A DNA stretch of 1,343 bases from Escherichia coli (GCF_003334405.1 NZ_QOWM01000045.1), one strand, 5' to 3'; positions 174 through 1,286 are shown, counted from the stretch's first letter. Made by a program: numbers and translations. The notes: generated from the letters alone by a model not told the origin.

Positions 174-1286
174 TTAGTTCTTCTTTTCGGATCCGGCACT
201 TCTGGGGGGGAAATCCAGCGATGGCTGGATTATGTCGTCAATTAAAAATGCGGCGAGTAGATTAGCAAATATCCACGCTTTCGCGAGTTCAGGTTCCTTT
301 GCACGCAAAGCATCCAGGTGCAGCAAACTTTTGAGCCGCTTAAAAGCCAGTTCAATTTGCCATCGCAGACGGTAACAATCAGCCACTTGCTCTGCTGAAT
401 ATTCATCTTCCGGTAATGATGTTAGCAATAGCACATGGCCCGCTGCTTCCAGCGTTTCCGCCTGAACTACTCGTCCTTTTCGACGATTCTCGCTGAGCAG
501 TCGGGTTTTACTGATTAATGCTTTTTCGGGAGGAAGTGATACGGCAATGAGACGTGCCGGAAAGGGAGCTCCGGCTTTTTTATTACCTGAATTGCCTATC
601 ATTACAGTGGTTTCACCGTTCTTACCGCAATCCAGCCCGCGCAGAAAACCCATCATGTCAAAGCGCATTCCTTCTGCAGTTAACCAGCGCAATCCTCGCC
701 AGTGAACCCGGACGATATAATCAGCTTCTCCAAAAGCAAGTGAGCGGATACATTCGGGACGCGAACCGAATCCCCGGTCAGCAATGCGTATCTCGTCTGC
801 CGTTTGCGCAAATCGGTCCAGCCGTTCAGCGTCTCTGCTGTCGGTTAGCTCAAAATCAGTGAACTGACAGGTATGAGGATCATATCCCATATGTAGTCGC
901 CATTCAGCGCTGCCGCCCCCGGGCGCACTGATTGCTGTTCCATCGACAAGACGCAATCTCTTTCCGCTTGTACAACCCGTAACTGCGGCGCGTACAGCAA
1001 GTGTTTGTGCGGCAAGTATGCCAAACCAGTCGGCGGCATTCCGCAGCCGCTTCAGGAGAGCCACGTCAGATAATGTTGCAACGTCATGGAGCTGAGCCCA
1101 TGCAGTGACTTCACGTAATGACATCCCCCCGGGGCCGTAAGCCAGCCCCAGACGTAGCAGAGTTGCAGCATCACGAATTTCGCGGCGGCGGGTTAGAGCC
1201 CCGGCATTACGTGCCGAAGTATCCAGTTCTTCGGGCTTACCAATATGGGCCAGAATTGCTGACCAGTTATCGTGAGAGTAATTCAT
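174..1286 (-). CDS. insL: IS186-type DDE transposase (IS4 family), 370 aa, apparently intact
   Basis: Seen in sequence: uninterrupted minus-strand ORF with ATG at 1286-1284 and TAA stop at 176-174. The track ORF (174-1292) begins two codons earlier at an in-frame GTG (1292-1290). The product from the ATG starts MNYSHDNWSAILAHIGKPEEL, which I recall as E. coli IS186 InsL. Candidate catalytic residues by analogy with IS10/Tn5 (transposase numbering): D115 in LVDGT (codon 944-942), D170 in IADRGFG (779-777), E312 in YRLRWQIELAFKRLK (353-351). The Y-(2)-R-(3)-E-(6)-K signature spans 374-339. The N-terminal third is basic (TRRREIRD...MSLREVTAWAQL), consistent with a DNA-binding region. Confidence 0.93.
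   Translation of the reverse strand: MNYSHDNWSAILAHIGKPEELDTSARNAGALTRRREIRDAATLLRLGLAYGPGGMSLREVTAWAQLHDVATLSDVALLKRLRNAADWFGILAAQTLAVRAAVTGCTSGKRLRLVDGTAISAPGGGSAEWRLHMGYDPHTCQFTDFELTDSRDAERLDRFAQTADEIRIADRGFGSRPECIRSLAFGEADYIVRVHWRGLRWLTAEGMRFDMMGFLRGLDCGKNGETTVMIGNSGNKKAGAPFPARLIAVSLPPEKALISKTRLLSENRRKGRVVQAETLEAAGHVLLLTSLPEDEYSAEQVADCYRLRWQIELAFKRLKSLLHLDALRAKEPELAKAWIFANLLAAFLIDDIIQPSLDFPPRSAGSEKKN

Follow-up and report, generated by a model that had tools for sequence, protein, structure and literature searches.

The 1,343-nt stretch of Escherichia coli DNA analysed here (GCF_003334405.1, NZ_QOWM01000045.1; hereafter the window) is a complete copy of the insertion sequence (IS) IS186 and is 100% identical over its full length to IS186 as it occurs in E. 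coli K-12 MG1655 and in numerous further strains. Its transposase, InsL, has been annotated for decades as a 370-amino acid (aa) protein encoded by a single open reading frame (ORF). Comparison with related elements suggests that the transposase is in fact encoded in two frames, and that a programmed +1 ribosomal frameshift at a CCC_N site is likely to yield a full-length IS186 transposase of 424 aa. As the site is common to related elements, and as a +1 shift at this point joins the body of the protein to a conserved 63-residue tail, the annotated 370-residue InsL is probably a truncated form of the 424-residue transposase. With somewhat less assurance, we also favour the broader proposal that IS186 and a multi-phylum clade of IS4-family elements would make their true transposase only through a hairpin-stimulated +1 shift at CCC_N, and that the truncated 370-aa InsL may have a regulatory role. 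Sequence comparison directly supports the frame architecture and its conservation, selection on the tail, a CCC_T motif at the junction (T in 50 of 54 distinct contexts), and a covarying hairpin.

The insL zero-frame ORF, annotated as the 370-aa IS186/IS421 transposase, lies on the minus strand at 174-1285, running from an ATG at 1285 to a stop codon at 176-174; it includes the DDE/YREK catalytic region and ends nine codons past the predicted shift site. On the coding strand the site reads TTC (212-210) CCC CCC (209-204) AGA (203-201), specifying Phe-Pro-Pro-Arg at InsL residues 359-362, and includes the GGGGGGG run at 204-210 (C7 on the coding strand) to which the original prediction drew attention. 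That prediction correctly placed the Pro-Pro pair ten codons ahead of the stop, where the second proline (Pro361) sits with nine residues between it and the stop, and correctly described a +1 frame that is open from 229 to a TAG at 13-11 and holds a 62-aa ORF. It also foresaw a long +1 tail, which exists, of about 65 residues, the exact length being 63. Within the predicted +1 shift site UUC CCC CCC AGA (201-212, minus strand), the P-site codon would be the CCC at 206-204, the zero-frame A-site codon the AGA at 203-201, and the skipped base A203. The +1-frame tail, comprising 63 codons (202-14, EVPDPKRRTNSLWRITKMVIWSLQVAIRGTVSLTAYKTQLKNARHRLNEAPRRRILQMVQPLS) and the TAG at 13-11 (together 11-202, minus strand), is predicted to extend residues 1-361 into the 424-aa transposase, and its stop codon falls within the right terminal inverted repeat (1-25), the exact reverse complement of the left terminal inverted repeat (1319-1343; 25 of 25 positions). 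Removal of one C gives FPP followed by the same 63 residues, for a total of 424 aa, while addition of one C gives a 16-residue tail and a total of 376 aa. An AlphaFold model of the tail contains two helices, at residues 373-389 and 394-408, with a predicted local distance difference test score of about 72-86. Alone, the G7 run and the open frame are unremarkable, as a homopolymer of at least seven is present in 22% of shuffles of the window and a 73-codon open stretch in a given frame has a probability of ~0.03 by chance; their significance derives from comparison with related elements.

Searching with the hypothetical 424-aa fusion recovered IS4-family proteins of 425-442 aa with a query coverage of 96-98%. 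Pairwise alignments with Pseudovibrio, Paracoccus, and metagenome proteins, which are in-frame homologues of 425-435 aa, start at residues 1-8, end at residues 415-421, and include the whole tail, with the motifs FPPE, S(L/I)WRI, AIxG, and EPPR(R/K)R matched in the homologues. The fusion aligns with homologues of this length class across its residues 7-420. Because these end-to-end alignments with in-frame proteins span the tail, we conclude that the +1 tail of IS186 is homologous to the normal C-terminus of the transposase family. For closer relatives, which share 57-85% identity and come largely from Alphaproteobacteria and metagenomes, the predicted proteins have 358-364 aa and end exactly in ...FPP, ...SPP, or ...SSP. 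The corresponding DNA reads TTT/TCT/ATT CCC CCC TGA or TCT TCC CCC TGA, and the +1 frame continues with PPE and ~60 residues that are clearly homologous to the IS186 tail, ending at a stop in the terminal repeat. At one locus (L013), CCC_TGA is retained and has moved four codons downstream.

A scan with the family alignment, using one genome per species, yielded 79 further loci from Alpha-, Beta-, and Gammaproteobacteria, Bacillota, Verrucomicrobiota, Planctomycetota, Acidobacteria, Myxococcota, Bacteroidota, and others. Frames were assigned to the scanned and the earlier loci by applying hidden Markov models (HMMs) of the body end and of the tail to three-frame translations. This revealed that 59 of the 79 loci with matches to both body and tail have the tail in the +1 frame and 14 have it in frame; the six assigned to the +2 frame are all low-scoring. 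The direction of the shift is thus conserved (59 loci in +1 versus six weak +2 matches), and the frame break with an intact homologous tail persists down to 31-45% identity and across phyla. One of the +2 calls, in a metagenome-assembled genome (MAG) of Nitrosovibrio (L072, ~1870-1890), has a C9 run, TCC CCC CCC CTG, and seems to have arisen from the +1 type through insertion of 1 nt; the remaining five are weak HMM matches in a Rhizobium/Ensifer/Methylobacterium subgroup.

Substitution patterns indicate purifying selection on the tail, confined to the +1 frame. The ratio of nonsynonymous to synonymous substitution rates (dN/dS), calculated by the Nei-Gojobori method for seven IS186-clade members with collinear 63-codon tails and for pairs with unsaturated dS, was 0.16-0.47 in the +1 frame and 0.8-3.4 when these nucleotides were translated in the two remaining frames. 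Variable columns fall most often on the third position of +1 codons (60 of 63, versus 44 first and 39 second positions), and when 33 fused and in-frame proteins were aligned, W374 and R415 were invariant and R375 and R413 nearly so. Conservation of the alternative frame, which the original prediction had named as a check, therefore proved strongly positive, both in the homology of the tail to in-frame C-termini and in the selection acting on it. These results bear on an alternative in which the 370-aa zero-frame protein is the complete transposase and the open +1 frame results from a recent frameshift mutation and chance. The DDE/YREK region lies wholly inside the 370 residues, IS186 bearing G7 is known to transpose (PMC3045373), and the open frame itself has the chance probability of ~0.03 given above, all of which such a relic would accommodate. 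We nevertheless give this alternative very little credence, as the same break and an intact homologous tail occur in 59 loci across phyla, dN/dS falls below 0.5 solely in the +1 frame, and two tail residues are invariant.

Three loci with the tail in frame fall inside +1 lineages: L015 shares 99% identity with L033, L016 shares 90% with L037, and L039 shares 69% with L053. At the site itself, L015 and L016 have lost one C or the T relative to their +1 neighbours, and L066, which enters through the junction comparison only, differs from its Bacillota +1 relatives (L054, L055, and L074) by one T. The stably in-frame clades, found in Pseudovibrio and Anaerolineae, have no pyrimidine tract. That a 1-nt deletion suffices for reversion, yet the +1 form predominates, suggests that the requirement for a frameshift is maintained by selection.

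The junction also carries a signal at the nucleotide level. With the shift codon assigned as the CCC nearest the end of the body HMM match, the last body codon is CCC at the same alignment position in all 57 analysable +1 loci, which represent 54 distinct contexts. In 50 of the 54, CCC is followed by T; the exceptions are A in IS186 and its E. albertii counterpart, G in L011, a relative at 89% identity, and L014, where the offset is an artefact. This T fills a third position that is synonymous when read in +1, and in frame 0 it opens a codon that is not conserved, so its conservation is that of the nucleotide itself. CCC would let the P-site tRNA re-pair after a +1 shift, with CCU in the loci that have T and with CCA in IS186. 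The zero-frame A-site codon is TGA in 14 contexts, TGG in 14, TGT or TGC in nine, TAC or TAT in seven, TCT or TCG in six, AGA in two, and GGA in one, and the C-run is three nucleotides long in two loci, four in three, five in 24, six in 23, and seven in two. The E. albertii IS186 and a variant on enterotoxigenic E. coli (ETEC) plasmids read TTT CCC CCC (C6), and the C7 of IS186 is attributable to a synonymous TTT-to-TTC change. Since relatives hold the same break with shorter C-runs, the length of the homopolymer is not the conserved feature; the original emphasis on a tract of at least seven as a slippage-prone signal is therefore not supported, as the break is kept with C-runs of 3-6, including the C6 of E. 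albertii, and CCC followed by T is conserved instead.

Known transcriptional slippage sites are A/T runs of ~8-9 nt or more. Here, we found neither a long A/T homopolymer nor an unconserved direction, but C-runs of 3-7 nt and mixed T/C tracts with a tail that is uniformly in +1. Were RNA polymerase to drop one nucleotide in the C-run or T/C tract, some mRNAs would encode the 424-aa fusion and the tail would be functional without any ribosomal shift; most loci have C5-C7, and transposases of other IS families do use transcriptional realignment (PMC3711429). We consider this explanation unlikely, as the C-run is only 3-4 nt in five loci, mixed tracts such as TTT TTT CCC T occur, T follows CCC almost throughout despite being synonymous in +1, and a uniformly +1 direction is the criterion of Antonov et al. 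for ribosomal shifts (PMC3711429).

A candidate 5' stimulatory mRNA hairpin, AUCCAGC-CAUC-GCUGGAU (213-230, minus strand; 7 bp with a 4-nt loop), abuts UUCCCCCCC on its 5' side, and RNAfold assigned it a free energy of -11.0 kcal/mol (z = -2.5). A perfect hairpin of at least 5 bp with its end 0-4 nt ahead of the tract is present at 34 of the 54 distinct +1 loci (63%), a share that falls to 18% in shuffles and to 13% where a control position was used. The stems vary between loci (CCAGC/GCUGG, CCGGC/GCCGG, CCCGG/CCGGG, CCAGG/CCUGG, CCGGACC/GGUCCGG, and CUCGCC/GGCGGG), as do the amino acids that they encode. Covariation was evaluated in an ungapped alignment of 30 sequences, ten of which have no perfect hairpin of at least 5 bp at this place and from which other loop lengths were left out. 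Pairing was seen in 66% of cells versus 29-45% with slid partners, a comparison in which the structure was derived from the same sequences; with the same dependence, the covariation score was 0.293 versus 0.137 ± 0.027 for shuffles (0 of 500 reaching it), with double changes in seven of seven pairs. The hairpin is kept in recently corrected in-frame loci and is absent from long-standing in-frame clades. Reading of the sequences upstream of the site gave no convincing Shine-Dalgarno (SD)-like stimulator (GGA only), and an Rfam scan of the window at E ≤ 1 matched nothing. A refolding hairpin just 5' of CUU_UGA has been reported to stimulate +1 shifting on 70S ribosomes (PMC6321510).

In the mechanism that we propose, the transposase of IS186 and of a large IS4-family clade would be divided between two frames, with body residues 1-361 (DDE/YREK) in frame 0 and a two-helix tail of ~63 residues in +1. 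Most ribosomes would stay in frame 0 and produce the truncated protein, of 370 aa in IS186 and of 358-364 aa ending in ...PP-stop in many relatives. A minority would shift by +1 while peptidyl-tRNAPro occupies the last CCC and the zero-frame A-site codon, UGA in many relatives and the rare Arg codon AGA in IS186, is slow to be decoded; AGA is the rarest codon in E. coli. The tRNA would re-pair with CCN (CCU in most relatives, CCA in IS186), the base after CCC would be skipped, and the next codon to be read would be GAA (Glu) in IS186 and GAA, GAG, GGG, or others in relatives, so that the shifted product would be the 424-aa protein ...DFPP-EVPDPK...QPLS. Refolding of the hairpin just behind the ribosome would probably stimulate the shift. 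We infer both the ribosomal, rather than transcriptional, nature of the shift and its efficiency; the full-length form would be the active one, and the short form a by-product or regulator that, by analogy with IS1, IS3, and the Inh protein of Tn5, could limit or regulate transposition.

Several observations weigh against this proposal. Transcriptional slippage that removed one C or U from the pyrimidine tract would have an identical protein outcome, so that tail homology, frame counts, and dN/dS fit it equally well. The truncated 370-aa protein holds the whole catalytic domain and could suffice for transposition. IS186 itself has CCC_AGA, with neither the T nor the stop codon of most relatives, and its closest diverged relative has CCC_GGA, while ~70% of family members have sense codons in the A site (UGG, UGY, UAY, and UCN) for which slow decoding is not established. 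About one third of the +1 loci have no perfect hairpin, and the hairpin does not abut the E site, its end being 6-8 nt away from the P-site codon. Lastly, many of the loci derive from MAGs and could be dead copies.

The proposed site has parallels among known recoding systems. CCC_UGA is +1 shift-prone, with ~15% shifting at E. coli pheL, to which the penultimate Phe contributes, and is used in Listeria phage tail genes; in E. coli it was described as 'not known to be utilized' (PMC5009743). The same motif, preceded by Phe or Ser-Pro, occurs in 14 of the 54 distinct family loci, and IS186 has Phe-Pro-Pro; here the site lies in an insertion sequence and, in IS186, AGA takes the place of UGA. 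The prfB gene for release factor 2 (RF2; CUU_UGA_C with an upstream SD-like stimulator) is alike in its +1 shift of a P-site tRNA onto an overlapping cognate codon with a stop in the A site, in a duplex-forming element just 5' of the site, and in a direction conserved over many taxa. The IS186 family differs from prfB in that the shift codon is CCC (tRNAPro) rather than CUU, a hairpin in the mRNA stands in for the SD:anti-SD duplex as 5' element, the site is close to the 3' end of the transposase gene, the A-site codon in IS186 is AGA rather than a stop, and there is no obvious RF2 autoregulatory logic except where UGA is used. As in the -1 frameshifting of IS1 and IS3-family elements (InsAB' and OrfAB), a shorter product is made by default and the full transposase by a frameshift, which presumably keeps transposase levels low; in IS186 the shift would be +1 rather than -1, at CCC_N rather than A6G/A7, with the split after the catalytic domain rather than between DNA-binding and catalytic ORFs. 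The yeast Ty1 site CUU_AGG_C is a hungry-codon +1 frameshift, and CCC_AGA_A of IS186 resembles it by analogy in combining a slippery P-site codon with a rare Arg A-site codon, the next +1 codon, GAA, being read by an abundant tRNA; the organism and tRNAs differ. The Inh protein of Tn5/IS50 has no N-terminus and arises from an internal start, while the IS186 short form would lack the C-terminus and arise by failure to shift.

The original prediction treated the G7 tract as a natural hotspot of copy-to-copy variation and proposed comparing its length across E. coli copies. On this account, replication slippage from G7 to G6 would generate occasional in-frame, active copies, with switching at the level of DNA. 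Exact 86-88-nt probes with G6, G7, or G8 revealed that, of 2721 E. coli records holding the region, 2592 contain G7, 145 contain at least one G6 copy, and 41 contain at least one G8 copy, and in a broad protein collection the exact 424-aa protein occurs on 130 contigs and the 376-aa protein on 382. In-frame derivatives of +1 lineages exist as well (L015, L016, L039, and L066). Tract length thus does vary in records, but without a convincing excess over a control run: an exact 1-nt deletion in the C6 run at 1125-1130 was found in 80 records, and the assemblies ER1709, ECCWS199, 2452, and 51008369SK1 head both deletion lists. Polymorphism beyond that of comparable runs, as expected of a phase-variable homopolymer, was therefore not apparent (G6 145 and G8 41 versus 80 for the control). 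The G6:G8 ratio of 145:41 in complete genomes reverses to 130:382 contigs in the protein collection, which fits platform bias. The G6 copy on a plasmid of the O104:H4 strain FDAARGOS_349 (NZ_CP027392.1; L003) has three 1-nt deletions, all in G/C homopolymers (G7, C5, and C6), and the same 75.5-kb plasmid in other assemblies has G7 and an intact 370-aa protein. Since the control run is comparable, the same assemblies recur, and this copy carries multiple deletions, most of the tract variation looks like assembly error and does not convincingly exceed sequencing error. As the architecture is moreover kept with C3-C6 runs, which are poor mutational switches, we regard DNA-level switching as highly unlikely; the search with the control homopolymer and the aligned variant copies led us to reject phase variation or a hotspot as the main explanation. 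Deletions like those of L003 are characteristic of long-read assemblies left uncorrected and call for caution in homopolymer censuses of 'complete' genomes.

The tail might also be made as a separate small protein, through independent initiation or termination-reinitiation and with no frameshift. The 62-aa GTG ORF (11-199, minus strand) lies in the +1 frame and begins at the second tail codon, and on 30 contigs it is annotated as a gene of its own, deposited as a separate 'transposase' or 'hypothetical protein'. We judge this the least probable of the explanations, as relatives have no conserved start (their tails begin EGKIRK, EPTDQP, or EGTAGN), many of them have no zero-frame stop at the junction, and body and tail form one polypeptide in the in-frame homologues. 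The cluster that holds the 62-aa ORF has 396 members, mostly partial IS4 transposase fragments.

IS186 belongs to the IS4 family by its sequence identity, its terminal inverted repeats, and a DDE transposase that combines a Tn5-like fold with the signature Y-(2)-R-(3)-E-(6)-K. The signature is visible in the InsL translation as Y305-x2-R308-x3-E312-x6-K319 (residues 305-319), a fold search recovered Tn5, and the NCBIfam model NF033592 matches InsL over residues 17-350 with a score of 133 bits (cutoff 115); RefSeq labels the protein 'IS4-like element IS421 family transposase'. A sequence-profile search of the PDB with the fused family alignment as query gave no match. A transposase gene without a frameshift has been stated to be a hallmark of the IS4 family (PMC2266710), and it does not hold here, as a conserved tail lies in +1 in IS186 and likewise at 59 of the 79 related loci. 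Identical IS186 copies occur at 8693 places in 2221 of the 5426 complete genomes searched. IS186 is among the most active insertion sequences of laboratory E. coli, the lon-promoter hotspot being an example of its activity.

A full-text literature search found no frameshift described for IS186, IS421, or the IS4/IS4Sa group, although an earlier mention is possible. A 2016 recoding review (PMC5009743) does not mention IS186 or IS4, and a genome-wide survey of frame transitions (PMC3711429) reports DDE_Tnp_1 clusters with A-rich sites, its text containing none of 'CCC', 'IS4', and 'IS186'; none of the papers searched connects IS186 with recoding. Programmed frameshifting in IS transposase genes is already known; new here would be its +1 direction, its location at CCC_N, the upstream hairpin, and its occurrence in the IS4 family. 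If correct, our proposal would mean that the IS4 family loses a defining trait and gains its first frameshift-dependent lineage, and that a CCC_N +1 frameshift is utilised in E. coli, the first such case, with an upstream hairpin as its natural stimulator. The activity of IS186 could then depend on modification of tRNAPro, on elongation factor P, or on the rare tRNAArg(UCU), linking transposition to translational stress. The gene models of IS186/IS421 and hundreds of 'IS4 family transposase' entries would be truncated, high-GC relatives would carry spurious extensions, and the pseudogene label of the annotation pipeline PGAP would fall on the form that matches the full-length architecture of in-frame homologues (G6).

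Current annotation shows several related peculiarities. PGAP calls the in-frame G6 form a 'frameshifted' pseudogene and the truncated G7 ORF intact (L001, 1511-2622; L003, 1511-2620), and the tail is invisible to this pipeline because the NF033592 model ends at residue 350. In high-GC relatives (P0083 and P0085-P0091; L014, 1150-1327), proteins of 388-471 aa are predicted with long Pro/Ala/Arg-rich C-terminal extensions in the wrong frame; such long calls arise because the zero frame has no nearby stop, and the extensions look 'conserved' because the real +1 tail lies underneath.

Other IS186-like copies were encountered during the searches. A DNA-level search of plasmids for diverged IS186 yielded near-identical copies, one variant (L004 and L005), and one fragment (L006), none of them informative on the tail. 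The variant, on ETEC plasmids near an IS1 (L004, 1201-2418; L005, 1201-2401; matching window positions 143-1343 with 96-98% identity), is without the first 142 nt, which comprise the right end and most of the tail; L005 has TTT CCC CCC (C6) and an intact 370-aa ORF, and L004 has G9 and a 15-nt insertion. In Candidatus Erwinia dacicola, IS186-like copies with 74-83% identity (L021, L022, L024, and L081) have internal stops and truncated HMM matches and appear to be decaying in a reduced symbiont genome. A 490-bp Corallococcus aberystwythensis contig (L023), with a coverage of 0.8 and 99% identity to IS186, probably represents contaminating E. coli DNA and not a copy native to the myxobacterium. 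The fragment on an IncF plasmid (CP027764.1; L006, 2001-2148; window 1-175) is a solo 148-bp right end of a diverged IS186-like element, with an exact inverted repeat, 81% identity, and internal deletions of 13 and 14 nt; it ends at the transposase stop, where it adjoins unrelated DNA, and ~77 plasmid records fall in its 80-90% identity band.

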